Shown piece after piece: positions 1 to 61,379 of a stretch of 61,379 bases of DNA (the first letter of the stretch is position 1; each line of letters begins with the position of its first letter). The translations under genes and the position numbers were made by a program. Source of the DNA: a virus (taxonomy: Duplodnaviria; Caudoviricetes). The stretch spans positions 1 through 61,379 of IMG/VR virus record IMGVR_UViG_3300036846_000573; one strand, written 5' to 3'. Below the pieces are notes generated by a model. That model was not told the origin of the DNA and made no database searches. It was given only the letters and a program-made list of their open reading frames with translations.

Positions 1-146
1 TTATTCATGGCACCCCTCCCAGAAAACTACGTTTTCTGGTTGCAAGCCATAGGCCAACTCAAGAACCCAGAGGCATCCTGGGTTTTTTAAAAGTCAAGAT
101 TTTTTAGTGTAAAATATTTAGGAAAGCCGTAAAATTTCTCGACGGT

Positions 147-175
147 TTGACACTGATTCCCGACCGACCCATATT
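147..175 (+). promoter_or_regulatory. Sigma70-type promoter for putative ncRNA
   Basis: TTGACA(147-152)-17 nt-CATATT(170-175); the second copy keeps TGGACA-17-CATATT (61142-61170). Confidence 0.65.
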
Positions 176-179
176 TAAA

Positions 180-330
180 CCAACCGCAAGGTTGGGATTA
201 GACGGGCCGTGCCCTAAAACCCCGTCCGACTGTGGAGTGGTTTCGTTCAAGCTCCATTACCGCTCGCGACAGTTCTCCCTTTAGGTGAAGGTTAAACTCG
301 CCGCCCTGTCCCCAGGGCGGCGATTTTTTT
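180..330 (+). ncRNA. Putative structured small RNA, unknown family (allele 1)
   Basis: Lies between promoter and terminator; stems CCAACC-GCAA-GGTTGG, GACGGG/CCCGTC, ACTGT/ACAGT, GAGTGGT/ACCGCTC; compensatory changes in allele 2. Confidence 0.6.
294..330. terminator. Intrinsic terminator, possibly bidirectional
   Basis: TCGCCGCCCTG-tccc-CAGGGCGGCGA followed by T7, with AAA upstream. Confidence 0.85.
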
Positions 331-4726: not shown

Positions 4727-4921
4727 ATGGAAGATTCGAGTTTACGAGGCGTCACCTGCGCAAAATGCGTCGCGCCAATCGACGTTCGCACGATGGAGGA
4801 CTGCATCGAGTGTCCGGAGTGCAGCATGACGTTCTGCGATAATTGTTATAACACCGAACTCGGCGACGGGTGCCACTGCCATGCTAATTCTAACTCACTA
4901 CCGGTAGTGGGAGTAATTTAG
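4727..4921 (+). CDS. Cys-rich zinc-finger-like protein
   Basis: CAKC, CPEC, CDNC, CHC. Confidence 0.6.
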   Translation: MEDSSLRGVTCAKCVAPIDVRTMEDCIECPECSMTFCDNCYNTELGDGCHCHANSNSLPVVGVI

Positions 4922-5125
4922 ATGACTGCTAGATATAAGGACCTTGATCTGTACCGCACAAGCGTGCACCAGCGAGCCAAGATTGCTGAGGAAGCTACTG
5001 ACGCAGTGAGGTATGTGTTTAAGTTCGCTGGGGTTACACTCGAAACCTCAGAACTGTCCCGTGTTACCAACCTGTTGATGAAACTTCTAACCGAGAGAAT
5101 GGAGCACACAGATGAACCTAAATGA
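4922..5125 (+). CDS. Hypothetical protein
   Basis: ORF with RBS. Confidence 0.6.
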   Translation: MTARYKDLDLYRTSVHQRAKIAEEATDAVRYVFKFAGVTLETSELSRVTNLLMKLLTERMEHTDEPK

Positions 5126-6287
5126 CGCGATGCATGTAATGCTAGACACGCATCTAGCAGCCATACAGGACGGCGAGAGGGCCGTCGGCATTGTCATGGA
5201 GAGCCCGCCGGGTATCGGCAAGACGGCGAACGTGTTTGTTTATTGCCACAACCTCGCCGTCGCGCTCAACGAGCCGGTCGCGCTGGTGCAGCAGATGTTC
5301 GCCACGTTCACCGGGCCTGACGTCAGGGGGTTCATGATCCCGGTCAAGTCGCAGGTGCCGGGCGAGCTACCGCAGACTGTTTTCAGTCTACCGCCCTGGT
5401 ATCCGACACATCAGAATATATGGGTGGTCGAGCCTTCCGGCGTGTGGTGGAAGCCCGGCACCTGGAAAGGCGAGATGCCCGATGTGGGCGTGCTGTTCCT
5501 CGACGAGTGGGGGCAGGCGGACGACGAAGTTAAGAAGCCGAGTGCCGAACTAATATATAACGCCACGGTGGGCACCGTCGAGCTACCGCCGCGCTGGCGG
5601 GTCTGCGCCGCGACAAACAGGACGGTGGATCGCTCGGGCGTCATGCGGGAGATGATGTTTATCGTCAATCGCAGGTTATTGGTTAAAATCTCGGGCGAGG
5701 TCAAGCCGTGGATCGAGTGGAACGACAATCTGCCGGAGGCGCGGCGGTGTCACGAGATGATCGTCACTTTCGTGCAGCAACATCCGTCTGTCGTGTTTCG
5801 CGACACGGTGCCGGACGGGACCGATCCATATTGCACGCCGCGCTCGCTGGTTATGACGGACCGCGTGCTTAAATCTATGCGCAGCGACGACGATAAAAAG
5901 GCCGGCCGGTTGCCGACCACCGACCTTGCACGCGAGGCGGCGGCGGGACTGATAGGCGAGGGCGCGGCGGCGCAGTTCTTTGTGCATATGCGGTTCTTTA
6001 ACGAGATCCCGATGCTAGCGGATATCGAGACCGATCCGCGTAACGCCATCTTACCTAAGGGCAAGGACGGGCAGATGGTGTGCTGCTATATGCTGGCCCG
6101 GCAGATCACCGAGAAGAACTGTTCGGCTTTGGTGACTTATATCTCGCGCATGAACGACGAGATGCAGATCATGGCGTGTGGGGTTTTTAATTCAACCGCG
6201 CCCGCACAAAAAATCCTGCTCGCGACCAAGGAGTATCAAGCGCTGCTGTTCAAACATAAGAACGTGCTGCGCGCTAGCGAGAGCTAA
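5112..6287 (+). CDS. MoxR-like AAA+ ATPase
   Basis: Walker A SPPGIGKT, Walker B LFLDEW, AATNR sensor, TPRS. Confidence 0.85.
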   Translation: MNLNDAMHVMLDTHLAAIQDGERAVGIVMESPPGIGKTANVFVYCHNLAVALNEPVALVQQMFATFTGPDVRGFMIPVKSQVPGELPQTVFSLPPWYPTHQNIWVVEPSGVWWKPGTWKGEMPDVGVLFLDEWGQADDEVKKPSAELIYNATVGTVELPPRWRVCAATNRTVDRSGVMREMMFIVNRRLLVKISGEVKPWIEWNDNLPEARRCHEMIVTFVQQHPSVVFRDTVPDGTDPYCTPRSLVMTDRVLKSMRSDDDKKAGRLPTTDLAREAAAGLIGEGAAAQFFVHMRFFNEIPMLADIETDPRNAILPKGKDGQMVCCYMLARQITEKNCSALVTYISRMNDEMQIMACGVFNSTAPAQKILLATKEYQALLFKHKNVLRASES

Positions 6288-24779: not shown

Positions 24780-27700
24780 CTAAAATCGCATCGAATCTTC
24801 CATGAAGCGGCGCTGTTTCGGGCTGACCTTCAGACCATAATCCTCTGGCTTGCGAAGCTGATCGCGCTGTTGTTTCTGTGCCTTGTATAACTCTGAGTAA
24901 TTTATTCTCTCGCCCTCGTGCTGGTTGTCGGCGTTGAATTGATCGACTGCCGTCCTGTCGCCCGAGCGCAACCACGCATCGATCGCGTGTTGTCGGTCTT
25001 CTTGGAGGTAGTTGCGGGCCTGTATGCCGGCATTACGTCTGTCGTAGAAGTACGCGTTGGGGTTAAGCCCGATCGCGGTGCCGACCGTACCGGCGACGGT
25101 TGTCTCGCCCGGCTCCCGGATCACCGCGCCGCGACTGTCGGTGAGACCGGTCGCGCGCTCGTTGTAGGCACGGAAGATGTCACGCGTAACGCGCGGCTGC
25201 AGTTGATCCACGGCCTTGGCGTAATTGCCGTTGATCAGATTGTGCAAACCGGCCTGAACCTGGGTTGCCGCCGCCATTGCTGGACCGCCAACGGCATTAC
25301 CAACCATCATGCCAAAGCCTTTAGCATCAAAGCTCTCCGGCCCTTTGATACCGCCCATGTTTGACAACCCGATATTTGTGTGCACGTCGAACCCGGCGAG
25401 ACCTGCCGCGCCGCGCGACAGGAACAAACTCATTGGCTCGCCCCAGCGCTCAGCCATCCACCGCCGCACCTCAGGCTCGCGGTCGCGCGGCTTATCGCGC
25501 CCTTCGATCCAGTCGAGCAGCCCGAACATGCCCGACACGCCGACGCCGAATACGTTACCGGTGACACCGCCGACCAGCGCGCTGTTCATCGCAATCAGCC
25601 CGGTGATCGCCTTGACCGCCTCGCGGCCTTCCGGGGTTTTAAAACTCATCTCTTTGGCGATGGCAGCCATCGTCGAGTAAAGCTGCATCGCGGTGACCTT
25701 GTACTGCATGATCGGCCCGGTCCAGCCTCCGAACGGACCTTGCTGCGTCGCCATGCGCGGGATGTTCCACGGCGCGACGCTGGGCGCGATGCGCCCCATC
25801 ATCTCCCGTGCGTGGTCCAACGACTCCGAGACGTTACCCTTGGTGTCGCGCATCGCCATATCGAACGCCGCCTTGGCAGCGGCAGACCGGTTCATGACAT
25901 CGACGGTGTGCTCGGCGACGGTAAACAGATCCATCATGTTATTGGCGAGGCGGCGTGCAACGCCGCCGGCTCCACCACCGGTCGTGTCGAACCCGCCGGG
26001 CTGTGCGAGGCGGCGCATCTCCAGCGTGATCGAGTGCGTGAAGGCGCCTTCGCGGTCCATCATGTCGACCAATGCCTGGGCATGCGCCGGGTCGCCCATC
26101 GATGCCTGTAGGCGTTTTAACATGACGCCGCGCATGTCCCAGTTCGACGTCTTCATGTCGCTGTGCATGACCGTCGCCATGTTGTGCAGACCCTGGCGCC
26201 ACGCGGTCGGTGCGACATCCAACAGCGACTTGGTCAGCATCACAGCGGTGCGGCCATAGCCAAACCGCGCTCCGAGATAAGCCATCGCGCGGATGTTGGT
26301 CTCGACCGCTTGCAATACCGGGTGCGCCACGCGCATCAACTGCATGGTAAAAGCCAGCCGGCTGACGCCGCGCCCCAGCTTGGCTGCGAGCGACATCGAC
26401 CGGTCGCCATCTATGGGTGTCGCCCGCTGCGTCATCTCGTGCAGCGCGTCGTTGCCCCGCTCGTACTCGGCCTGACGCGTCAGACCCTGGTTACGCAGCG
26501 ACGTAACCTCGCGGCGCATCGCCGACAACGCGGTCGTTTCCTCGCCGCCATGCAGCAGATGCCCGACACGCGAGGCGGAGCTAAGCGTGTCCATGTAGAG
26601 GACTTTGGCGGCGTCGGTCGTCGCGCCCTTGATGCCTTGGCGGCGCGCGCGGGTGCGCGCCTGCTGCGAACTGGTGGCGTTGCGCAGGCGCAGCCCTACC
26701 ATTTCATCCCTGACCGCCTTGATCTGGTCGGTATCGAGGCGGTAGCGCTGCATCTGGTTGATGGCTTTGTCGGAGACCCCGCTGTCCTTTAAGTCCTGCA
26801 CCTCCTGGGGTGATAGCTTGGTGCGGGACTGCAGGGCTTTATCGAGGTTCTCGATGGTCCCTTCGGGCAAAGCATTCCTGGCGTTATAGGCTTCCTTGCG
26901 CGCAACGCCGTGCACGTCGCTCGCCCCTTCGTCTTCGAGTTGCCGGGCACGCGCCATGGCTTCGCCGCGCCGCTCGAACATCTCGACGCCGTAGCTCTCC
27001 GGGTGCTCCTTGTCGCCCCAGCTTACGATGTAGTCGCCGTAGCGGCGCTGCGGGAAGTAATCCCCCTCGATCCACCCGTTGCGCCATTCCTTGGCGAGCG
27101 CCTGGGCAAACGCCCTGCTGTTCTGCCAGCGCTCACCGACCGCATCGGCGATCGGGCTGGCGTCGGGGTTGCTGATAAAGTCTTCCAGCGCGCGGCGGCT
27201 CTTGAACGTATTTTCTAAAATGCCGCGCTCGGCTGGGGTCCAGTCGGCGAATGTCCGGTCGGCGATGGATTTAAAGACCGCCTGCTTCTCCTCGACATCC
27301 ATCGCGCGATGCATGTCTTGCAGTTCTTTGTATAACCCACGCTCGGGCGCCGGCAGGTTGTCGTAAGTTTTCTGTAAGTTCTCAGCGACCTTTAGCTGCT
27401 CAGAATTAAGATGCGCGTTGTCGGCCAGAAAATCTTTACCGCCTAGTCTAGCTGCGACACCATAGGTCGCGCCGCGCTTGGTCGGCAGCACGCCGACATC
27501 GACGATAAGCTGTCTGAAATCGTCACTCGCTTGCTGGATGCGGTGGCCCATGTCTTGGACCTTGTCGCCCCAGCGGCGCATGAACTCCTCGGTCTCGTGA
27601 AACGCGTTCTTCTGCGCCTCGTGCACCTTCTCGATGCTCGGCGTGACGTCCTTGTTTGCCTCGACCAGATCCTTGGTGGACCGGAACGGGCTGACCGTGC

Positions 27701-30700
27701 GGCGGACGGCGCTGCTGACGCCGCCCTTGCGGTCGGCGACGTATTGCACGGCCTTGCCGACACCGCGCTCCACCGCCGCCGGCGACCCCATAAACCCCGT
27801 CCGCATCGCCTCGCCCATCGGGCGCGCAGCTTCGCGTGTCGGTTCGTCGGGCAGTGCGTCGGTTGGAATGTCGTGAGACATATCCGGCGCTGCGCGGTCC
27901 TCGAACAGCGCAGGCTTGTCGATCGATGCTGTCCTCCGATTGAAATATCGGTTTGTCCCAAAAAATTCACGCGCCTCGCGGTCGAGCGCGCCACCGGCCT
28001 CGGTTATATCGGTCAGCGGGCGCAGCATCGCTTCGAGCGTGCTCTTGCCGTCGCGCCCTAAATGGAACACTTGCCGCATGATCTCGACAAACGAGTGCCA
28101 CAAGGACGGCTGCGGCGTGTCGTAACCCAGACGCGTCATCTCCTGACGAAATGCTAGGCTAGGTTCTTTACGAGCTAAAATTGCCTGAAACCTTGACTTC
28201 GTCATGACCAATGTCGGGATCTCATGACCCTGGCTGGCTGCGGCGTAGTCGAGGAGAAACCTATCGTCGTCAGTCAGCGTTGCGTCGCTGTTCTTAATTT
28301 TTGAAAGTTCTTTTTGCATCGCCCGTATGGCGTCGTAATGCCGCTGTTCTTCGGGCTCTAAAGGCTCGCCATATTCGACCTTCTCGAACAGGGTTCGGAA
28401 ATAACGCCGCGTCGTTGCGTGCAACGCTTCGTGGACAAGGGTCTCGACGGGTCGTGGAGCTTTCTCGTTTATGCCGATGATATCGTGATGTGACTCAAAT
28501 GCACCCAAAGAACCACTATCGATAGCCTCTTGCCACGCGTTTCTAAAACCTTCGTTGTGAGCTAGATTCCGCATCAGCCGGTAGCTTCCGACCGGCACGT
28601 CGGCAGAACCGAGAAGCCGCTGTATTTGTTTGGACAACTCGACAAGATGCGGCGCCAGCGCCTGCGCCGGCCTATTATCGATGACGTCTTCTTGCAGGAC
28701 TTTGTGCAGCGAGACGGTTCTGCCGGCTTTGTTGGACGCGTTCAACCGCTCGCGTATCGGCCGGCTAAGAGCGCGGTCTGCCAAGTTGCTGGCAACCTTA
28801 GTCCGTGCGTCTATCGCCTTAGAAGACTGCGCCGGCCTATCCTCGCTGAGATCCGGGTTGTCGCGCAGCGCCTGGAATCTTGCCATCGACTCTTCGTCGG
28901 TGGGTAGTTTGATCTCCTTGGCTTGTTCTCGCGCGCGTGCCCGAGGCTCGGCCTTAGGGGCTATCGTGCTGTCGATATGCGCCTTGGCCTGCGCCTGGAT
29001 CTCGCCCAACCGGTCGAGCGCGTTGACTTGTTTCATCTCACCGGCAAGCTCGGTGATCTTACCCTCGATGCGGGTAAGCTTGTCCGAGGAGGTTTTACCT
29101 TCGGACTTAAGTCTTGCTTGCTCAGTGTTGTACTGCTCGCGCAGTCTATCAGCCTGCGCCGCACCCTTGTCGCCGGCTTCCTTAACCGCCTCGATGTGAC
29201 GGCCCATAAAGTCGGCGAAATTATTGGCGACGCTCGGACGCCCCCGCCCGCCCACCCGTCTGCCGTACAGGTCGGCGGCTGTCTCAACGTCGTGGTGATT
29301 ATTTAAGATATCCTGGACCAGCGCCTTGCCGATCGTTGTCTTGTTGGTCGTCGTCGAGGCAAGGCGCATCGCTTGGCCTTGCTGCTCGCGCGGGATATTC
29401 AATTCATCGCCCAGCGTGCGCCCGCCTGCGACACCTTCTCGGGCGGCGCCGCGCCGCAGCGGTTGTTGGGTAACCTGTTCGGCAACCGGCTCGGTGCTGA
29501 CCGGACGTTCCTGCGCCGCGCGCAGTTGCTCGGCTCGGGCTGCCACCGCCTGCTCGACCGCGCCACGTTTTTGTAACGTTAGCGTAGTAGTTGGTTTAGG
29601 TTGAGTTGGTTTAGGTTGATTCACAGGTTCTGCCTTTGGTTCCAAAGGCTTAGCCTGCTCGCTCGCAGCCCGTCGTTTGACCTTCTCGACCGTGAAACTT
29701 GGCTTCTCGCCAACACCCTCGGCTTTAGCCTGGGCCAGCGCTTCTCCTACTGTCTTAGGAGGAGCTACCTCACGACCGGTAGTGGGAATAATAGGGGCGG
29801 TTTTTTCAGTAATATCGGACGGTGTTTCGGCCCGCGCCGCCAATGGCTTAGCAATCTCGCTCGCAGCCGGTGGTTTAATTCCAGAGGGTATTTCAGGGGG
29901 TATTTCGGGGGGTGCTGTCGTCCCCGTTGTGGGTGGTGGTTCTTCCGGATAAACCGCGCCGCCGCGCACCCGCGCATCGGCGGTCGCCGCCTCGATCGTC
30001 GGACCTTTGCCGATGACATCGCCGTCGATGTTCTTGGCGACGACCTGCCCCTTATTCACATCATCCGGTTCGGTGCGTATCTCAGAAGATGGTGCCGCTC
30101 GCTCGACTGTCGGTCGTGCTGGCGCTGTCGGCTCTGTCGTGGGCGCTGGCCGTAGTTCTGGTGGTGGCGCTGGTGGTTCTAGCGCGGGAGGCTCTGCGCG
30201 CGCTGGTGTTAGCGTCGGTGTGGTAGGTCGTTCCTGTGGTGGCCCAGCCGCTGCTCCGCCTTCAGGCGGCTGGGCCATTGATCTTTCGAGTTCCTGTATG
30301 CGCTCTTCTGAATAGCCGCGTCTCGCCAACTCCGTGCGTTGCTGCGGGGCAAACCTAGCAGTCGGCGCTAAAGCGGCTGCGACTTCCGGCGCGACACCCT
30401 CGCCCGGTGCGCCTTCCGCGCCGCCCTCGCCAGCCGGCGGTGGCGCGCCTAGCGTGCCCTCGACGGTATCTCTGGCTACATCTCTGGTTACGGCTTTAAC
30501 GCGTGCGGCGATGCCGCCCGGCTCACCTTCCGGTGCTGCGCCGGGTGCGCCCGGTGGTGCGCCTGGAGGTGCGCCGGGTGGAGCGCCTCCTGGCTCTGGA
30601 GGAAGCCCGCCCAGCGGGGTTTCGCTAGGAGGCGGTAACGCTGGCCTCGGCGGCGGCAAGGCCAACCGGATGGCCGCAGCCTCGGCGGCTGGCACTCCTG

Positions 30701-31901
30701 GTGTCGCCGCCGGTGGTGGTGTTGCCCTAGCCGCCGGTGCCGGCCGCGCACCGCCGCCGGTCAATCCGACGATCCCAACCAGACCCGTGTTGTTTACTAA
30801 ACTTGCAACCCGCTGCCCGGCGGTCGGCTGCTCGTAGGGTTTACCGCCGGCTGTGTCGATAACCGGGCCGAGTTCGGTCTGTGCCGCACCCAAGGCTTCG
30901 AGACCGGCCGCTTTACCGAGCAGCCCCGGCGCAGCGAGGGTCGGCGCGGCGGCAGCCTCCCCTGCTTTACCCGCGACATTGTCGACGACGCTCTTGACCC
31001 AGCCACCTAACATCTCCTGACCGGGTCTGGTCATGATCAGCGCCGTCTGCGCCCCCCCAACGGCAGCACCGACGATGACGCCCATCGCTGTCGCTGCCGG
31101 GTCGCCGCCGGATTTGACGTTGGCGTCGATCCCGCCCAGCGTACCCAGCAAGGCTGCCGCTCTTGGGATCGTGGCAAACCCGCCCGTCGCGGCGCCGGCC
31201 AGGATGGTCGGCACGATCTCCAATGCCGCGCTGGCGGACTGGCTGAGGACCGCCGACACCGAATGGTATTTGTGCCATGCCTCGACGGGGTCGTTGGTAT
31301 CCGGCGCCCAGTCCTTGGTGAATTGCTCCCAACCTTTAAGCTGAGATTCCAACGCGTCTTTGATGGCTGGCGAATCGATATCAAACTGTCTGGCGATAAA
31401 GTCGGCGCCGCGTGTCGCGACGATGCCGATCTTGCGCGCTTCGCCGACGGAGCCGCGAACCAGGGCTTTTCCCGATTCCGCTAAAAAACCCGGCGGCGGC
31501 GCTTCCGGTACATTCGCTTCTGCCGGGCTGGCGTTAAAGGCTTCACCGCCAATGGTGCCCCACGGCGTCTTCATGCCGACAACGGATTTCTCGGGCTTCT
31601 CGGGTTTTGTCGGTTCGGCGGCTGTCGTCGACGGTTCAAGGTCGCCGGCGCCGGGCGGCAAGGGCGCCGGCGCGCTGCTGGTGCCATAGACATCCGGGGC
31701 GTAGCCGATCGCCGGTGGGACTTCGGTGTCGGTCGGGCTGCCGGTAGGCGCCGGTGTTGCCAGAGGTGACGGTGTTACGACGGCGCCGCCGGCCGGCGCC
31801 GGTTCGGGCGACGGCCTGACAGATAGTTGCTCGGTGTCCAGGGCCGGGTCTTGTTCCCCGGTGTCCAAGTAAGGGTCGGTGGGATCGTAAGGGGCGGCCA
31901 T
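24780..31901 (-). CDS. Large virion/ejection (polyvalent) protein, 2373 aa
   Basis: Size and position; zincin-like HEALH motif. Confidence 0.75.
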   Translation of the reverse strand: MAAPYDPTDPYLDTGEQDPALDTEQLSVRPSPEPAPAGGAVVTPSPLATPAPTGSPTDTEVPPAIGYAPDVYGTSSAPAPLPPGAGDLEPSTTAAEPTKPEKPEKSVVGMKTPWGTIGGEAFNASPAEANVPEAPPPGFLAESGKALVRGSVGEARKIGIVATRGADFIARQFDIDSPAIKDALESQLKGWEQFTKDWAPDTNDPVEAWHKYHSVSAVLSQSASAALEIVPTILAGAATGGFATIPRAAALLGTLGGIDANVKSGGDPAATAMGVIVGAAVGGAQTALIMTRPGQEMLGGWVKSVVDNVAGKAGEAAAAPTLAAPGLLGKAAGLEALGAAQTELGPVIDTAGGKPYEQPTAGQRVASLVNNTGLVGIVGLTGGGARPAPAARATPPPAATPGVPAAEAAAIRLALPPPRPALPPPSETPLGGLPPEPGGAPPGAPPGAPPGAPGAAPEGEPGGIAARVKAVTRDVARDTVEGTLGAPPPAGEGGAEGAPGEGVAPEVAAALAPTARFAPQQRTELARRGYSEERIQELERSMAQPPEGGAAAGPPQERPTTPTLTPARAEPPALEPPAPPPELRPAPTTEPTAPARPTVERAAPSSEIRTEPDDVNKGQVVAKNIDGDVIGKGPTIEAATADARVRGGAVYPEEPPPTTGTTAPPEIPPEIPSGIKPPAASEIAKPLAARAETPSDITEKTAPIIPTTGREVAPPKTVGEALAQAKAEGVGEKPSFTVEKVKRRAASEQAKPLEPKAEPVNQPKPTQPKPTTTLTLQKRGAVEQAVAARAEQLRAAQERPVSTEPVAEQVTQQPLRRGAAREGVAGGRTLGDELNIPREQQGQAMRLASTTTNKTTIGKALVQDILNNHHDVETAADLYGRRVGGRGRPSVANNFADFMGRHIEAVKEAGDKGAAQADRLREQYNTEQARLKSEGKTSSDKLTRIEGKITELAGEMKQVNALDRLGEIQAQAKAHIDSTIAPKAEPRARAREQAKEIKLPTDEESMARFQALRDNPDLSEDRPAQSSKAIDARTKVASNLADRALSRPIRERLNASNKAGRTVSLHKVLQEDVIDNRPAQALAPHLVELSKQIQRLLGSADVPVGSYRLMRNLAHNEGFRNAWQEAIDSGSLGAFESHHDIIGINEKAPRPVETLVHEALHATTRRYFRTLFEKVEYGEPLEPEEQRHYDAIRAMQKELSKIKNSDATLTDDDRFLLDYAAASQGHEIPTLVMTKSRFQAILARKEPSLAFRQEMTRLGYDTPQPSLWHSFVEIMRQVFHLGRDGKSTLEAMLRPLTDITEAGGALDREAREFFGTNRYFNRRTASIDKPALFEDRAAPDMSHDIPTDALPDEPTREAARPMGEAMRTGFMGSPAAVERGVGKAVQYVADRKGGVSSAVRRTVSPFRSTKDLVEANKDVTPSIEKVHEAQKNAFHETEEFMRRWGDKVQDMGHRIQQASDDFRQLIVDVGVLPTKRGATYGVAARLGGKDFLADNAHLNSEQLKVAENLQKTYDNLPAPERGLYKELQDMHRAMDVEEKQAVFKSIADRTFADWTPAERGILENTFKSRRALEDFISNPDASPIADAVGERWQNSRAFAQALAKEWRNGWIEGDYFPQRRYGDYIVSWGDKEHPESYGVEMFERRGEAMARARQLEDEGASDVHGVARKEAYNARNALPEGTIENLDKALQSRTKLSPQEVQDLKDSGVSDKAINQMQRYRLDTDQIKAVRDEMVGLRLRNATSSQQARTRARRQGIKGATTDAAKVLYMDTLSSASRVGHLLHGGEETTALSAMRREVTSLRNQGLTRQAEYERGNDALHEMTQRATPIDGDRSMSLAAKLGRGVSRLAFTMQLMRVAHPVLQAVETNIRAMAYLGARFGYGRTAVMLTKSLLDVAPTAWRQGLHNMATVMHSDMKTSNWDMRGVMLKRLQASMGDPAHAQALVDMMDREGAFTHSITLEMRRLAQPGGFDTTGGGAGGVARRLANNMMDLFTVAEHTVDVMNRSAAAKAAFDMAMRDTKGNVSESLDHAREMMGRIAPSVAPWNIPRMATQQGPFGGWTGPIMQYKVTAMQLYSTMAAIAKEMSFKTPEGREAVKAITGLIAMNSALVGGVTGNVFGVGVSGMFGLLDWIEGRDKPRDREPEVRRWMAERWGEPMSLFLSRGAAGLAGFDVHTNIGLSNMGGIKGPESFDAKGFGMMVGNAVGGPAMAAATQVQAGLHNLINGNYAKAVDQLQPRVTRDIFRAYNERATGLTDSRGAVIREPGETTVAGTVGTAIGLNPNAYFYDRRNAGIQARNYLQEDRQHAIDAWLRSGDRTAVDQFNADNQHEGERINYSELYKAQKQQRDQLRKPEDYGLKVSPKQRRFMEDSMRF

Positions 31902-31902
31902 G

Positions 31903-34900
31903 TCAGCGTGCCTGCAGTTGGTCGCGCGTGACGCGCCGTGGCATGCCGATGGCTGGTGGGTTGAACACGACCGGCGCCTGCGGCTGAACCACCGGGCGCT
32001 GCGGCATCTGGATGTTGGGAACCTGACGCGGGCCGGTCGGCGGCGGGTTCGCCGCTAAAGCCCTCTCGACCTCTGGGATAGCGGTGCCACGCAGCGACTG
32101 CGGTGACAGATAAGCGCGCGGATGACCACTTGGGTCGAGCACGGTAAAGCCTGTCGTCCTGCCCTGAGCATCAACCAAGGGCGCCAGCTTCATCGTCGTA
32201 ACAGGATTACCCGGTGTCGACTCCTTGGTCTGGGACACGAGACCCTTAGTCAATGTCTTGGCCTGATCCACCGTTTGCTCGGTGTTGTTCATGCGCAGTG
32301 CTTTATAGATCTGCTTGGAGCGGTCTAGCTGCTCCTGGTCCCAGGTAGATCCATTCTCGTTGGTGAGCGGGTTCTTCGAGCTAGGATCGAAAATACCCTG
32401 CTCCAGTATTTCTTTGTCGGCAGCCGCAGCGGCGCGCGCCTGGGTCTCTTGCTGCGCCCCCAGCCGGGCATTTGTTGTCTCGATGTTTGCCTGTACCCGC
32501 TGCGCTGCGTCATAGAGCGAGATTTGATGCTGCTCTGCGGCACGCCGATTGGCTTCGGTTTGCTGCACGCCGACCCGCTGCGCTTCGGCTTGCACCGTCT
32601 GATTGGCGTGAGCCGTCTCGAACTCCAGCTTCTGCCGCGCCTGGGCTTCCAGCATCTGGTTGTGGACGATCTCTTCGTTGGTCTTTTTCTCCTTGTCGAC
32701 CATTTCGGCCCACTTCACCGGATCGGCGACGATCCGCATATTGTCCATCAGGTTTTGCTGAGTGACTTGAAACGGCCCGCCCATCGGCTGATGGGTCACT
32801 TCGCTGTAGCGCTGCCCATATACTTTGTCGTCCGAGACACCGAACTTGATAAAGGCGCCGTCCTCGACAAAGGCATGGCTGCGCGCCAGGAAGTAGGTCG
32901 CGGCGCTCCAGTCCTTGGCGCCCATCGCGCCATAAGCACGCTTCAAATCGTCAAAGCTTCCGGCGTGCTGCTCGCGCGTCAGCAACTCGATGGCGGCGCC
33001 GGCTGCCCCCCAGTTGTCGGTCAACGCCGCCTTGCGGTAGATCGCCAGCCTAAGCGCGGCAAAGCCGTTGCTGGGTGTCGTGTTCGACGGCGCGGCGTCA
33101 TAGGTGACGTAGCTCAGAAGCCCGACCGGGCCACCGGCTTTGGTCGCCGCCATGGCGGCGTCCGGGTCGGCGGTGCCGGGCTTGCTGTTATTATCCAGCG
33201 AGTTCGTTGGGCCGGCTGGCGCCGGCGCTGGCGCGCCGGGAACGACCGATGTACCAGGACCGGGCACGCCACCCGGTGGCGGCGGCACGGCTTCTGCCGG
33301 TGTCCCCGCTGCCGCGCGCGGCGCTGGGGGCGTGCCGGGCGGTGGTGTCGGCGGCGGCGCGGTTGGCGCTGTCGCTTCGGCTGGCGTCCGTGCCTGCGGT
33401 GTCGTCTCACTACCGGTAGTGACCGGTTTTGCTGGCGGAATGACCGTTGGCGGAACGACAAGACCTTCTTGTATATTTCGCGCGCCTTCAGCCGCAGCCT
33501 GTGCTGCCTGCGCCCCCGGCAAACCTTCGGGCTGCACCGTGATAGCTGGCAGCGCATTACCGATAGCTCGACCGATGGCTCGACCAAGCGAGCCATACTC
33601 AGGCGCCGGTGTGCCGGTTGGTTGGAGCCCGCCCGGAGGCTCAGGCTCGCCGGTCTCAGGATTGACGACTGTACCGGGTGGGTAAGCGCGCGCCCGGCCT
33701 TGCCCTTGCAGAACCGGCGGTGGTCCCGGTAAAGGCGGTGGCACTGCCGGCGCAGCTTGCGGCGGCACGACAGTCGGCGGCACGACCAGTTCGCGAGCGC
33801 CGCCGGGGCCACTGACAGGACCGCGAACCCCGCCTAGATCCGGCGGCGGTGGCGGCGACACGGTGTACGGCACCGTCGGTGGAACAACAACGTCACGCGC
33901 ACCGCCGGGGCCGCTGACAGGACCACGAACACCGCCCTGATCCACTGGCGGTGGCGGCGACACGGTGTACGGCACCGTCGGCGGTACAGTCAGTTCACGC
34001 GCATCGGCGCGGGCGCCGATAATGCCGCCGCCTTCCTGCGGTGTTCCGGTAACCGTCGGCAGACCGGCGCTTGTCACCGCGCCTTCGGGCGGCGGCTCCT
34101 CTTCTTCCGGCTTGCGCCCCATAAACGCATCGATGAATTTCCACACCCCCGGCGCGTTGGCGAGGGCGATCTCGTGCGACGCGTCGGGCCGCTGCAGCAT
34201 GCGCTTGACCACATCGGGTCCGGCATAAAATGCCGCGACGGCATTTTTAGAACCGCGCCCGAACTCGTCTTCCGCCTCCTTCCACTTGAGCGCCCCCATG
34301 TAGAGGTTCTGAATGGGGTTATTAATATCTAACGTTTGTTTAGGGTCGATGCGCTTCTGCTCGTCGGGGCTGATCGCAAAGTAACCAACCCGACCGTCCT
34401 CGTCTTTGTAGCTAGGGTCGGTATCGCTAGATAATTTTATAAGCTGCGCCAAATCGATCGGCGACACGCCGACATCGGTACCAACTTTATTCAGCGCGTC
34501 GTACAATGCCGGGTCGTTGCTGCGTAAATCCTTATAGGTTTCCGCCGGCACCGGGATGCGGGGTTGCTTTATCGGGAACGGCGCCTGCTCGCCGATCGCC
34601 GAGCGCGAACCGGGTGTGCCACGAAACACCACCGGCGGCGCCGGCGCTGGCTCGCCGGGAGGTTTCTCCTCGGGAGCCTGCATCTCCCGCGTCATCGGTG
34701 TCGTCGGCGGCATCGCCGCAGGCGATGGCTGATCGCCAACTTCATCGGGTTTTACCGAGCCGGTCAGCGACGTCGCACCGATAGCCGGTTGAGGTTGAGC
34801 CGGTATCTGCGACGGGGTCAGGACCGGCGCCTCAGTAGTTGGCTCTGGCGTCGCTGGCGTCGCTGGCGCGCTGGGGCCGCTTACGGCTGTATCTTCAGTA

Positions 34901-35898
34901 TCGTCGTATGGGGGCATCTGGAACTCCGGATACCCGGTATTCGGGTTGATGTTCTGGCTTGGCGATCCTGCAGTATAAGCTGAAACGTCTTGATTCTGTT
35001 GTTGAAACGCGCTGCCGATAGCGCCCATGACTTCGGGAGTCTGAGCTTGTCGAGGCACGACGACATCGCCCGGAGTCAGATGTCCGGTGATCGTGTCGGA
35101 GCCGCGCCCCTCCTGGTCCGCAGAAGCTTTATACTGCTGAAATTGCTGCATGCCGTACGGAGCGCGGTCTTCGTACTCGTTATGAAATCTATCTCCGGGA
35201 CCGCCTGGGCGATACACCGTGGGCGTCTCAGCCATGCCCGGCGTTAGCTCAGGATGCTCGGGGTTCTGATAATACCGACCGTAGTCAAGCGGGTTGATCC
35301 CGCTATAAGTTCCAGGTTGGACGCCGCCACGTACTGCTAATGCGCGCCGATTAAAGTCCCCAGCACTATCATATCGCTCGACGGTATCTGGCGGTCCTGG
35401 CACACGCGATGATCCAGAGTATCGATAGTTAGTAAAATCACTCTGCGCAGCATCCGGTAAATCCTGTTTTTGTCTTATATAGTCGGCAACGTCTCGGGTC
35501 GCGATCGGGTGTACCGCCGCCTCGTAAGAATAATCAGCTTCTTTGGGAGAATGATAAGCCGGCCAAGAACCCCAGCCTTCTTTAGCAGCCCGTCTAGTCG
35601 CCTGCTCTACCGGTAAAATCTTACCGTCCCATACTGTTGGAATATTATAATACGCAGGAGCGCCGCCAATATTTGGCCCCTTAACAACTGCCTGATAAAG
35701 TGTCGATATGCTACCGTCTGAATGCTCGACCTTGCCGTTGCCGTACAGGTTTGCCCTATGATGGTTGTAAAGATTAAGCTCCTGCGGCGACAAATCCTCT
35801 AGCTCACGGTTCTGGCTCGCCGCAGGGCGATAAGACTGCCAAAGCCGGTCAGTTTCCGCCGGTATCGGTGTCAGATCCTGTTGGCTATTGTCGCTCAT
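31903..35898 (-). CDS. Internal virion protein with degenerate SLT-like domain, 1331 aa
   Basis: GRVGYFAI...NPIQNLYMGA...AVAAFYAGP; Pro-rich repeats. Confidence 0.65.
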   Translation of the reverse strand: MSDNSQQDLTPIPAETDRLWQSYRPAASQNRELEDLSPQELNLYNHHRANLYGNGKVEHSDGSISTLYQAVVKGPNIGGAPAYYNIPTVWDGKILPVEQATRRAAKEGWGSWPAYHSPKEADYSYEAAVHPIATRDVADYIRQKQDLPDAAQSDFTNYRYSGSSRVPGPPDTVERYDSAGDFNRRALAVRGGVQPGTYSGINPLDYGRYYQNPEHPELTPGMAETPTVYRPGGPGDRFHNEYEDRAPYGMQQFQQYKASADQEGRGSDTITGHLTPGDVVVPRQAQTPEVMGAIGSAFQQQNQDVSAYTAGSPSQNINPNTGYPEFQMPPYDDTEDTAVSGPSAPATPATPEPTTEAPVLTPSQIPAQPQPAIGATSLTGSVKPDEVGDQPSPAAMPPTTPMTREMQAPEEKPPGEPAPAPPVVFRGTPGSRSAIGEQAPFPIKQPRIPVPAETYKDLRSNDPALYDALNKVGTDVGVSPIDLAQLIKLSSDTDPSYKDEDGRVGYFAISPDEQKRIDPKQTLDINNPIQNLYMGALKWKEAEDEFGRGSKNAVAAFYAGPDVVKRMLQRPDASHEIALANAPGVWKFIDAFMGRKPEEEEPPPEGAVTSAGLPTVTGTPQEGGGIIGARADARELTVPPTVPYTVSPPPPVDQGGVRGPVSGPGGARDVVVPPTVPYTVSPPPPPDLGGVRGPVSGPGGARELVVPPTVVPPQAAPAVPPPLPGPPPVLQGQGRARAYPPGTVVNPETGEPEPPGGLQPTGTPAPEYGSLGRAIGRAIGNALPAITVQPEGLPGAQAAQAAAEGARNIQEGLVVPPTVIPPAKPVTTGSETTPQARTPAEATAPTAPPPTPPPGTPPAPRAAAGTPAEAVPPPPGGVPGPGTSVVPGAPAPAPAGPTNSLDNNSKPGTADPDAAMAATKAGGPVGLLSYVTYDAAPSNTTPSNGFAALRLAIYRKAALTDNWGAAGAAIELLTREQHAGSFDDLKRAYGAMGAKDWSAATYFLARSHAFVEDGAFIKFGVSDDKVYGQRYSEVTHQPMGGPFQVTQQNLMDNMRIVADPVKWAEMVDKEKKTNEEIVHNQMLEAQARQKLEFETAHANQTVQAEAQRVGVQQTEANRRAAEQHQISLYDAAQRVQANIETTNARLGAQQETQARAAAAADKEILEQGIFDPSSKNPLTNENGSTWDQEQLDRSKQIYKALRMNNTEQTVDQAKTLTKGLVSQTKESTPGNPVTTMKLAPLVDAQGRTTGFTVLDPSGHPRAYLSPQSLRGTAIPEVERALAANPPPTGPRQVPNIQMPQRPVVQPQAPVVFNPPAIGMPRRVTRDQLQAR

Positions 35899-58049: not shown

Positions 58050-59468
58050 ATGGAATACGACGCGCCAAAGATCATCCAGAGTTTTATGCTGGATGATATC
58101 CATCGTATTAGGGTTTTAGTGGGACCCCTCGGGTCCGGCAAGACGATGTCTTGTATTATGGAGTTATTAAAGCGCGCCTGCAAGCAGGTACCGACATCTA
58201 AAGGAATTAGATACACCCGGTTCGCGCTTATCCGTAATACTTTACAACAACTGCGGCAGACCATTTTGGCTGATGCGCAGCAATATCTGGGGCACTGTGC
58301 ACACTATTATGTCACAGATTCTACATTACAGATAAGATTGCACCTGCCCGACCGGACGAGCGTGCACTCGGACTGGATGTTATTACCCTTGGATTCAAAA
58401 GAGGACGTCAGGAGATTATTATCTTTACAACTTACCGGCGCGTGGATCAACGAACTAAGAGAAGTACCCATAGATATTATTAGACCACTTTTAGGTAGAT
58501 GCGGACGCTATCCCAGTAAAGCCCTAGGGGGCGCGACGTGGCGCGGGGTCATCGCCGACACCAACCCGTGGGACACGGATAGCCCTTATCACGACCGCAT
58601 GGTGCTCAACCCGCACCCGTCGTGGAAGCTCTACCACCAGCCCAGCGGGTTGTCGGCGGAGGCCGAGAATATCGAAAATCTGCCGGAAGGTTATTACGAA
58701 GAATTGATGAGCGACAAAGATCCCGACTGGAGCGCGGTGCACGTCGAGTCCGAGTGGGGCACGAGCAATGCCGGGCAGGCGGTGTTCCGCCGGACGTTCC
58801 ATGCGCCGACGCACGTCAAGGACATGCATGTCACGGTCAACCCGAACAAGCCGGTCATGGTCGGTCTCGACTTTGGCCGCACGCCCTGCGCGGTCATCGG
58901 CCAGCACGACAACTTTGGGCGCGCAATTATTTTTCAGGAAATCATCACCGAGGGCATGGGGCTGATCCAGATGATCGAAGAGCATCTGAAACCCGTATTA
59001 TTAAACCCGCCTTTTATTGGTAAGCGGGTGTTTATCGTGGCCGACCCGGCGGGCCGGGCCAAATCCCAGGTCACCGAAGAGACGCCGTTTGATATTTTAA
59101 AAGATCAGGGATTTTTAGCTTACCCCGCCTCGACGAATAGTATCGAGCCCAGACTCCTGGCGGTCGAAAGACTGCTGCGAACGACACTCATCGGTCAACC
59201 TGCCTTACAAATTAATAGGTCCGGCTGCCCTGTGCTTATTTCCTCATTAGGAAACAAGTACAGATACCGCCGCCGGCGGGATGGGCAGATCGACGACATT
59301 CCCGAAAAGCTGCATCCGTGGAGCGATATCTCTGACGCCTTACAGTATTTTTGTTTAGGTACTCAAGCTAACCTCACGGGCCGCGTCATGGCCCGCGAGA
59401 GAAGATTCTTTGCCGGCGTCGCGCCGCCGGGGGCCGAGACGCGGGTGTCGTCCCTCGGCTGGACCTAA
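58050..59468 (+). CDS. terL: Terminase large subunit
   Basis: GPLGSGKT, WINE, DTNP, GLDFGRTP, ADPAG, SDISDALQY. Confidence 0.93.
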   Translation: MEYDAPKIIQSFMLDDIHRIRVLVGPLGSGKTMSCIMELLKRACKQVPTSKGIRYTRFALIRNTLQQLRQTILADAQQYLGHCAHYYVTDSTLQIRLHLPDRTSVHSDWMLLPLDSKEDVRRLLSLQLTGAWINELREVPIDIIRPLLGRCGRYPSKALGGATWRGVIADTNPWDTDSPYHDRMVLNPHPSWKLYHQPSGLSAEAENIENLPEGYYEELMSDKDPDWSAVHVESEWGTSNAGQAVFRRTFHAPTHVKDMHVTVNPNKPVMVGLDFGRTPCAVIGQHDNFGRAIIFQEIITEGMGLIQMIEEHLKPVLLNPPFIGKRVFIVADPAGRAKSQVTEETPFDILKDQGFLAYPASTNSIEPRLLAVERLLRTTLIGQPALQINRSGCPVLISSLGNKYRYRRRRDGQIDDIPEKLHPWSDISDALQYFCLGTQANLTGRVMARERRFFAGVAPPGAETRVSSLGWT

Positions 59469-60183: not shown

Positions 60184-60900
60184 CTAACTCCGGCGCCGCC
60201 GCCATGCGACAAATCCCAGCGATGCCAGCATCGTCCCGAGCATTCCCAGTGTACCCGGCTCCGGCACGGGTTGCTGAAATTTGATTTCGGTCTGGCCGCG
60301 ATTGACCAGGGAACCACCGTTGGTCAACAAACCGCTGGCCTCTTCGGTCATGCTGAATAATGCCGGGTCGGTGATCGGCCCGGTGTTGTTGTGCGAGAAC
60401 GAGTCTGCGACGAGGGTCGCGGTGTGCGCAAAGCTATCGATCAGCGCGCCGGGGTGATCGCCGACGCCGCTATCCGCGCCCTGACCATTCGCCGGGTCAT
60501 TCCAAAACTGTAATAAAATATTCGACCCGACGGCAACCTCGAAAGTACCGCTGCCGGATGTATTGAAAGCGTTCACGGGACCGACAAAGTTTGTCGCGCT
60601 GACCGTGAAAGCCACTTGCTTATTGCTGCCTGAATTGTTGATGATCTGCAAAGATGACGTATCCAAGATGTTGGCCGAGCCCATCGTGGCGATGGATACA
60701 TTTCCGTTGACATTAACTCCGTTGATGACCTGATTCGGCAGGGCCAGCGTGCCGACCGCCGGGTTTGAATCGCACGCGGCGTTGTCGATGCAGGTGCCGG
60801 TCGTGCCGCCTATGTCGAAGGAAATTATCAGGGTCGCCTGAGCTTGTTGACTTATTGCCAGCAGCGCTACGGCGGCAACCCCTAACAAAAATTTATTCAT
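60184..60900 (-). CDS. PEP-CTERM sorting-domain surface protein
   Basis: Signal peptide (AQA) and VPEPGTLGMLGTMLASLGFVAWRRRRS. Confidence 0.9.
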   Translation of the reverse strand: MNKFLLGVAAVALLAISQQAQATLIISFDIGGTTGTCIDNAACDSNPAVGTLALPNQVINGVNVNGNVSIATMGSANILDTSSLQIINNSGSNKQVAFTVSATNFVGPVNAFNTSGSGTFEVAVGSNILLQFWNDPANGQGADSGVGDHPGALIDSFAHTATLVADSFSHNNTGPITDPALFSMTEEASGLLTNGGSLVNRGQTEIKFQQPVPEPGTLGMLGTMLASLGFVAWRRRRS

Positions 60901-61090
60901 GGCACCCCTCCCAGAAAACTACGTTTTCTGGTTGCAAGCCATAGGCCAACTCAAGAACCCAGAGGCATCCTGGGTTTTTTAAAAGTCAAGATTTTTTAGT
61001 GTAAAATATTTAGGAAAGCTGTAAGATTTCTCGACGTTTTTTTGATGGGTTTGGGGCGCGACGACGCCGGGTGCACTCCGGCGCCGTCGC

Positions 61091-61126
61091 CACTCTTTAC
61101 ATTCGGTACTCTCATATTTAACGGCT
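61091..61126 (-). ncRNA. Solitary TIGR-like guide unit specific to the right-end allele
   Basis: Reverse complement reads AGCCG-ttaaatat-GAGAGTACCG-aatgtaaa-GAGTG, followed by GC hairpin 61058-61090. Confidence 0.85.
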
Positions 61127-61174
61127 GTTTTTATCTCTAACTGGACATTGACACTCGATCAATCCATATTCCGA

Positions 61175-61339
61175 ACCAACCTTGTGTCTGCATTCACAAG
61201 GCCGGGATCAGACGGGTCGTGCCCTAAAACCCCGTCCGACTGTGGAACGGTTTGTGTTTAAGCTCCATTACCGTTCGCGACAGTTACTCCCTTTAAGCAA
61301 AGAAACTCGCCGCCCTGTCCCCAGGGCGGCGATTTTTTT
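61175..61339 (+). ncRNA. Putative structured small RNA (allele 2)
   Basis: Homologue of 180-330 with covarying stems. Confidence 0.6.
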
Positions 61340-61377
61340 GCGCTCGGCTAACGCGGTTCTCTCAATCCGCCCGGCTA
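61340..61377 (-). ncRNA. Duplicate of solitary guide 331-368
   Basis: Identical sequence. Confidence 0.8.
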
Positions 61378-61379
61378 GA

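Follow-up and report, generated by a model that had tools for sequence, protein, structure and literature searches.

Positions 147–330 of the viral record analyzed here (61,379 bp, the window) form, as judged from sequence, a stand-alone gene for a structured non-coding RNA of ~150 nt that runs from a predicted promoter to a predicted terminator. Sequence comparison solidly places the putative RNA, in diverged form, in a sister branch of Proteo-phage-1 (Rfam RF03044), within the superfamily named after that family, and the window carries two alleles of its single locus. The reading we lean toward is that it acts as a discrete accessory RNA that binds a protein or ligand. Its kinship with Proteo-phage-1 makes the find only partly new; the sister branch, a pseudoknot and a bulged 3′ hairpin are additions to a known family.

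The predicted RNA gene and its two alleles

The gene begins with a σ70-type promoter at 147–175 on the plus strand (TTGACA at 147–152, 17 nt and CATATT at 170–175), which matches 10 of 12 consensus positions, with 0.4 such sites expected in shuffles of 1–700, and would start transcription near 182. It is followed on the same strand by a 5′ hairpin at 180–195 (CCAACC-GCAA-GGTTGG, −10.1 kcal/mol; none of 200 shuffles folded as well), an element that differs between the alleles and across the family. Helix Pa (194–214) pairs GGG at 194–196 with CCC at 212–214 around a loop made of AUUA, the 5′ strand of helix Pb and CCGUG, and Pb (201–226) pairs GACGGG at 201–206 with CCCGUC at 221–226. Pa and Pb probably form an H-type pseudoknot, the third loop of which is A-rich (UAAAAC, 215–220). 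A long hairpin, P3 (228–274), directly follows and comprises a lower stem (228–233/269–274), an upper stem (235–241/259–265) and a loop (242–258), with the pair G234–C267 predicted to lie between bulged G266 and bulged G268. A single-stranded linker, CUCCCUUUAGGUGAAGGUUAAAC (275–297), the most allele-variable part of the RNA, leads to an intrinsic terminator at 298–330 with an 11-bp G+C-rich stem (298–323), a UCCC loop and U7. Both alleles folded with better energies than all of their 200 shuffles (z of −3.6 and −4.4). A preliminary description of this stretch had reported the promoter, the ~150 nt and the terminator, all of which are in place and recur at 61142–61339. Its three-way junction was wrong in one helix: the GGG of a GGGA/TCCC closure more likely pairs with the CCC of the hairpin loop, giving the pseudoknot. 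Among public runs, those listed as containing the window DNA comprised one DNA run and no RNA sequencing run.

The window spans an entire IMG/VR virus record, classed as linear with a CheckV completeness of 100, and its DNA comes from a tailed phage from soil with a genome of ~60.9 kb. PHROG matches over its genes are those of a tailed phage, with a rightward block on the plus strand from 574 to ~24,500 (DNA polymerase, helicase, primase and nucleases), a leftward block on the minus strand (portal, internal virion protein and tail fibre genes) and a large terminase subunit (TerL) gene at 58050–59468. The nearest TerL of cultured phages, from 60.9-kb Rhizobium phages, is 38.7% identical, and TerL proteins at 69–81% identity are encoded on 29 uncultured viral contigs.

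Positions 1–379 align to 60894–61379 with near-identical flanks and a diverged centre. The allele structure was read from the contigs of that one public DNA run, the sole run holding the window DNA and probably its source, which form a simple bubble between common flanks with branch depths of 20 and 6.9. On the left, a common contig covers 1–127; the allele A branch (depth 20) is identical to window 98–323; the allele B branch (depth 6.9) carries the allele B differences plus 156 letters replacing 38; on the right, one contig runs unbroken from 294 to 1422. Since both branches join one unique right-hand sequence, there is a single RNA locus, and 147–330 and 61142–61339 are two alleles of it rather than two loci. 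We infer a genome of ~60.9 kb, circular in the assembly, with one RNA locus whose variants occur at ~3:1. The imperfect end repeat is an assembly artefact in which the strain bubble was walked twice. The preliminary title had spoken of two alleles, as the bubble shows, while its text had spoken of copies, a wording that the bubble corrects.

Allele B (61142–61339, plus strand) has its promoter at 61142–61170 (TGGACA, 17 nt, CATATT), its 5′ hairpin at 61181–61202, its core at 61200–61287 and its terminator at 61307–61339, identical to that of allele A over 61307–61332. Immediately 5′ of the promoter lies the insert found in allele B only (61041–61141, plus strand; the 156 letters for 38), with a G+C-rich hairpin at ~61058–61092. 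As first described, the GNRA-capped 5′ hairpin of allele A is replaced by CCTTGTG...CACAAGG, of 7 bp, and the GACGGG/CCCGTC stem with its loop CGTGCCCTAAAAC is kept in both alleles, within a 26-nt core at 201–226 and 61211–61236 that has one mismatch (0 such repeats expected in 100 shuffles). In the upper stem of P3, GAGTGGT/ACCGCTC becomes GAACGGT/ACCGTTC, so that G237–C263 changes to A-U and U238·G262 to C-G, again as reported. The linker differs at 284, 287 and 290 and has deletions at 286 and 292. No pair is broken by a substitution between the alleles, and the two co-occurring alleles amount to a ready natural compensatory-mutation experiment. The single-base indels between them exclude a shared reading frame and thereby rule out a protein-coding reading of ORF 147–284 (45 aa).

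Several further features of the window were observed. Downstream of the RNA terminator but ahead of the first gene of the rightward operon, three direct 15-bp repeats with the consensus ATTTTAGTGAAGTAA (378–422) resemble iterons or operators; the words TTAGGTGAAGG at 281–291 and 542–552 are related to them. The second of these belongs to a partial repeat of the RNA flanks, TTAGACGGCCC ... TTAGGTGAAGG, at 527–552 on the plus strand in the 5′ leader of ORF 574–1425, which may be a relic of a second RNA copy. The sequence CCTACA is repeated 5.2 times at 1429–1459, immediately after the stop of that ORF, and a dense cluster of direct and inverted GCGCCTATG-type repeats at 1575–1925 may be regulatory or an origin. 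On the minus strand, 60184–60900 encodes a phage-borne secreted protein of 238 aa with a C-terminal PEP-CTERM sorting motif (PF07589, 24 bits), hinting at a host exosortase system. Two giant ORFs of 2373 and 1331 aa (24780–35898, minus strand), whose sole PHROG match is a family of unknown function, are probably virion or ejection proteins; neither had a Pfam match, and the 2373-aa ORF had no PDB match.

Relationship to Proteo-phage-1

Rfam gave no gathering hits over the whole window, and a scan at E ≤ 10 of 1–700 and both window ends returned terminator-like noise and no RF03044, whose gathering cut-off is 42 bits. Likewise, neither the window RNA nor three representatives of the family had a blastn match among 50,697 cultured phage records, and an exact 19-mer scan of viral contigs was also empty. 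A two-sequence model (R1) picked up two related contigs, each with a weak match 3′ of terL; in common they had AGACGG-NNN-GUGC...AAC-CCCGUC and a hairpin after it. A degenerate word pattern then matched 41 loci in viral contigs, from which two (L044 and L056) were dropped as chance and one (L051) had the pseudoknot words without the hairpin, leaving 38 with the hairpin, or 32 distinct sequences. The same pattern matched 41 loci in genomes, where ~35 chance matches were estimated from database size; family features were present in 20 and missing from the other 21. The hosts of the 20 genuine loci were 19 Alphaproteobacteria and one unclassified Pseudomonadota MAG. The RNAs of this form, which we term the A-U branch after the third pair of Pb, are found in prophages of Alphaproteobacteria and in phage contigs of soil and marine origin.

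The A-U branch of the Proteo-phage-1-like superfamily is defined here by a covariance model built from 47 A-U-type sequences with the window left out (R2). R2 scored allele A at 53.5 bits and allele B at 52.6, with E-values of ~6e-12 and ~9e-12 that are rough owing to a short calibration; the next match in the 61 kb scored 13.9. Four further terL relatives matched at 34–36 bits. R2 also matched RF03044-type RNAs, at 17–33 bits, and in the other direction one A-U-type locus (L042) passed RF03044 at 56 bits, the sole pass among 20 A-U loci scanned, with three more below threshold. None of three further relatives of the window's phage passed, so that the Rfam model finds 1 of the 23 A-U-branch loci scanned. 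A scan for the RF03044 form, AGCCGG...CCGGC, found at least 120 viral loci, and 16 of 17 such sources passed RF03044 at 55–82 bits. The window RNA had been presented as belonging to no recognised family: it indeed matches no Rfam family directly, while R2 and L042 reveal its kinship with RF03044. RF03044 itself is the branch of the superfamily found in lambdoid phages of Gammaproteobacteria.

The two branches have the same order of parts, namely a variable 5′ hairpin, a loop hairpin and an A-rich stretch complementary to the loop, and both occur in phages or prophages; the window is a phage record with its hairpin directly upstream (180–195). The RF03044 loop, GAU-N-AG(A/C)CGG-NNN-GUGC, recurs in the window, in the form GAU-N-AGNCGG-NNA-GUGC, as GGG-AUUAGACGGGCCGUG-CCC, except that C or U-C stands where the GAGUGC of the family has an A that is at least 90% conserved in 50 relatives. 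The RF03044 tail, AAC-N-CCG(U/G)C-AG, was compared as AAC-N-CCGGC-AG and reads AAAAC-C-CCGUC-CG in the window, where the G-to-U change in the tail is matched by C-to-A in the loop. As in the A-U branch generally, the window's P3 begins one base after Pb and has the 3′ strand C-G-Y-G, in which Y is paired and both Gs are bulged. The branches differ in the third Pb pair, A-U in the A-U branch and C-G in the RF03044 type, and in the P3 bulge, a double G-N-G in the former but a single G or CG in the latter. Their hosts also differ: the A-U branch has Alphaproteobacteria, whereas the RF03044 type matched one cultured phage, of Pseudomonas. So do their neighbours: portal, capsid and terminase genes in the A-U branch and the nin/Q region in the RF03044 type.

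RF03044 is described as a candidate sRNA from comparative genomics, and its Rfam model ends before P3 and shows no pseudoknot; the hairpin drawn in its consensus is Pa. Neither 'Proteo-phage-1' nor 'RF03044' appeared in the full texts searched. In the main-text passages on 'phage' and 'Proteo' of PMC5737381, which is probably the source paper of the motif, Proteo-phage-1 goes unmentioned. Proteo-phage-1 is thus an orphan family, and one far wider than the Rfam model detects.

Covariation across the family

Pairs were counted over 50 distinct relative sequences. In P3, 94.8% of cells were paired and 10 of the 11 pairs were altered on both sides, whereas sliding the partner by 1–3 columns left 29–46% paired; the pairing of the lower stem is partly built in, as the trimming script demanded a complementary stem next to GYG, while the upper stem and pair 50–122 played no part in sequence selection. 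That pair, equivalent to G234–C267 of the window, was G-C in 39 sequences, A-U in nine and G·U in two, and is flanked by the two conserved bulged Gs. Pa is only 2–5 bp long in the family; its pair 7–23 was G-C in 47 of 50, and its pair 6–24 was G-C in 27, C-G in 17 and other in six.

Because Pb was set by the search pattern, it was checked separately by word scans for pairing and mispairing forms of its third pair, a natural two-by-two test in which the A-U pattern is slightly narrower than the other three. The pairing forms were found at 41 loci (A-U) and at least 120 loci (C-G), against 10 and 16 loci for the mispairing forms, among which one and two were family-like by eye and the rest unrelated sequence. 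One locus (L030) has a G·U form of this pair and a longer Pb. G·U pairs are confined to one strand, which identifies the plus strand as the RNA strand and rules out an element acting at the DNA level. The fuller architecture of the family would be an H-type pseudoknot backed by this test plus a bulged hairpin outside the Rfam model.

The earlier proposal of a structured non-coding RNA with covariation was borne out, first by the compensatory changes between the alleles and then massively by the 50 relatives. Among the checks that had been suggested, Rfam yielded no known family for the window, and in the homologues collected P3 and Pa covary. The GGGA/TCCC closure fared less well, being present in both alleles but unsupported in relatives, where GGGA/UCCC-like pairing occurs in 24 of 50 members compared to 46% when partners are mismatched between sequences. 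The closure is not conserved in the family and is possibly an alternative pairing in the window. Conservation across the family extends to the pseudoknot but to neither the linker nor the P3 loop.

Possible roles and comparison with known systems

The A-U motif usually lies ~50 nt past the stop codon of a large gene on the same strand, which means that the 5′ hairpin begins right after the stop. The preceding gene encodes a portal protein (PF04860 above the cut-off at eight loci and below it at two, with a strong PHROG portal match at L066), a major capsid protein (two loci), TerL (two loci) or, in a group of Rhodobacterales prophages, tail proteins. These 350–480-aa genes are not integrases, which led us to reject an attP site or a host gene fragment left by an integrase. 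In the window's own clade the RNA lies 0.35–2.5 kb beyond terL, mostly on the opposite strand, with the window and L068 having it on the same strand; its strand relative to terL varies among close relatives. A metagenome scan for P3 loops of the window type found one locus, probably the same record as L068. The RNA is present at six of the 29 terL-relative loci. It is carried, always in a single copy, by three of five related phage records and is absent from two, one of them 100% complete. Searches with the neighbouring 283-aa and 238-aa proteins found relatives with no RNA beside them. One related phage (L032) has, antisense within an endolysin-like gene (5273–5299, minus strand), a hairpin with the window's P3 loop (UGUUCAAGCUCCAUU) on another stem, for which the window has no counterpart.

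In the reading we lean toward, host-type RNA polymerase would start at the σ70-like promoter, make the ~150-nt RNA and stop at the intrinsic terminator. The 85-nt core (190–276) would fold into a compact pseudoknot followed by P3 with its two bulged Gs around one covarying pair. The near-invariant pseudoknot may serve as the module that a conserved protein or a small ligand binds, while the variable 5′ hairpin, P3 loop and linker may tune the RNA or give it specificity. The RNA would be released as a discrete, terminator-ended molecule and act as an accessory, 'moron'-like factor, non-essential for the phage. Such a role is suggested by its own promoter, by a terminator-like hairpin within 130 nt 3′ of the RNA in 26 of 51 members (21 with at least five T), by the roughly one-third of members that face a convergent gene, by the patchy presence and by the variable bubble between identical flanks. 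The constant association with terminators and with late or packaging operons suggests a partner in the termination or RNA-turnover machinery. Phages whose virion and replication modules are unrelated still conserve the structure, which implies a molecular partner that they have in common, in the host or in transcription. Against a discrete RNA, the window deviates at a near-invariant family position and is not scored by the Rfam model. A σ70-like promoter precedes the RNA in three of 51 members (both window alleles and L041), and most members, located ~50 nt past a portal, capsid or terminase stop, would be co-transcribed, a layout that fits a cis element as well as a 3′-UTR-derived RNA.

Its main rival, which we rate as unlikely, is a cis-acting leader like put of phage HK022, in which the nascent pseudoknot and bulged hairpin would bind RNA polymerase or recruit a phage or Nus factor, allowing read-through of the terminator at 298–330 and of later ones. 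The window has the order expected of such a leader, with a promoter, the RNA, a strong terminator and a 24-kb operon on the same strand, and no other plus-strand σ70-like promoter was found between the RNA terminator and that operon (330–574), which favours a leader and counts against a discrete RNA. About two-thirds of A-U-type members belong to late operons, where a hairpin follows the RNA and further genes on its strand come next. The RF03044-type RNAs are likewise found at the junction between the nin/Q region and the late genes of lambdoid phages: they follow the nin region and a gene in the Q position and precede the lysis and late genes, and 52 of 72 such loci have a same-strand Q-position-type gene upstream, within 500 nt in 25. 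In Pseudomonas phage phiAH14a (L239, KU708004), the RF03044 RNA (82 bits; locus 5001–5194) is flanked by two terminators and has NinG-p54 on one side and the lysis and terminase genes on the other. However, the third of members that face a convergent gene would have nothing to antiterminate; they include the closest relatives of the window (L026 and L032), in which the RNA and the terL operon use one bidirectional terminator. The complete close relative lacking the RNA further argues that it is not required for early or late transcription, and there is only one copy per genome.

Two side observations concern RF03044-type loci. At 4770–5300 of phiAH14a, a minus-strand hypothetical CDS (p55), probably a mis-annotation, overlies the RF03044 RNA and a small plus-strand ORF. 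In one viral contig (L128), two tRNA genes lie directly 3′ of the RNA (1657–1803).

The remaining roles are less likely than the put-like leader. It is improbable that the RNA is a base-pairing sRNA in which the pseudoknot acts as a scaffold or stabiliser and the linker (275–297) or the P3 loop (242–258) as a seed for phage or host mRNAs. Both segments are unpaired in the fold and variable between alleles, the P3 loop contains GCUCCAUU, whose complementary partner AAUGGAGC lies across the ribosome-binding site of ORF 574, and the linker carries CUCCC, an anti-Shine-Dalgarno-like word. Nevertheless, neither segment formed better duplexes with the 58 translation-start regions of the phage than shuffled seeds did (−18.9 for the allele A linker versus a shuffled median of −19.4; −18.6 for the allele A loop versus a 5% tail of −17.9), and it is the pseudoknot, not these candidate seeds, that the family conserves.

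An H-type pseudoknot that is conserved and has an A-rich third loop is an architecture familiar from aptamers, and the resemblance, together with the hairpins that follow about half of the members, would suit a riboswitch that responds to a metabolite or signalling nucleotide by setting termination at the next hairpin. We regard this as quite improbable, given that the genes downstream have no function in common and a third of them are convergent, that no Rfam riboswitch matched, that half of the members have no terminator-like site and that P3 and the terminator are separated by a spacer of varying length and sequence, leaving no conserved switching partner visible. Least probable, to the point of being hardly credible, is a processing or stability element, either a self-cleaving ribozyme or a block to 3′-end exonucleases on abundant portal, capsid or terminase mRNAs; the compact pseudoknot core and the position directly after the stops of highly expressed structural genes in many members would suit it, whereas the window RNA is joined to no mRNA, no Rfam ribozyme matched and a terminator hairpin is normally enough to protect 3′ ends. 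We also considered N4-type hairpin promoters for a virion RNA polymerase and rejected them, as the 2373-aa protein has no PDB or Pfam match and there is no sign of such an enzyme.

Among known systems, the late leader of lambda (pR′-6S RNA-tR′) occupies the place equivalent to that of the RF03044-type RNAs, after a Q-position gene, before the lysis and late genes and ending in a terminator. We know of no conserved pseudoknot in the 6S leader, and the window RNA, unlike that leader, sits away from any Q-late junction.

The likeness to HK022 putL and putR is one of layout and general build: like the window RNA, they are short two-arm RNAs located after a promoter and before terminators. According to the passages on put in PMC9378689, this RNA is ~70 nt long and has two helical arms; it contains a minor-groove triplex, an A-rich third strand belongs to one arm, and bulges that matter for function belong to the other. 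Binding to the β′ zinc-binding domain has been shown for put, whereas the window RNA is known from its sequence, and put acts in cis only, at operon heads, whereas a third of the Proteo-phage-1-like family sits at operon ends. By this analogy we would only tentatively, and with considerable doubt, propose the Proteo-phage-1 superfamily as a second widespread class of phage RNAs that, like put, bind the polymerase or a termination factor. If so, a pseudoknot and a double-G-bulged hairpin would reprogramme termination in phage operons of Alpha- and Gammaproteobacteria, and the two alleles would show the fold being kept while the parts that confer specificity are swapped. Finding the partner of the RNA would explain a recurrent piece of phage genomes.
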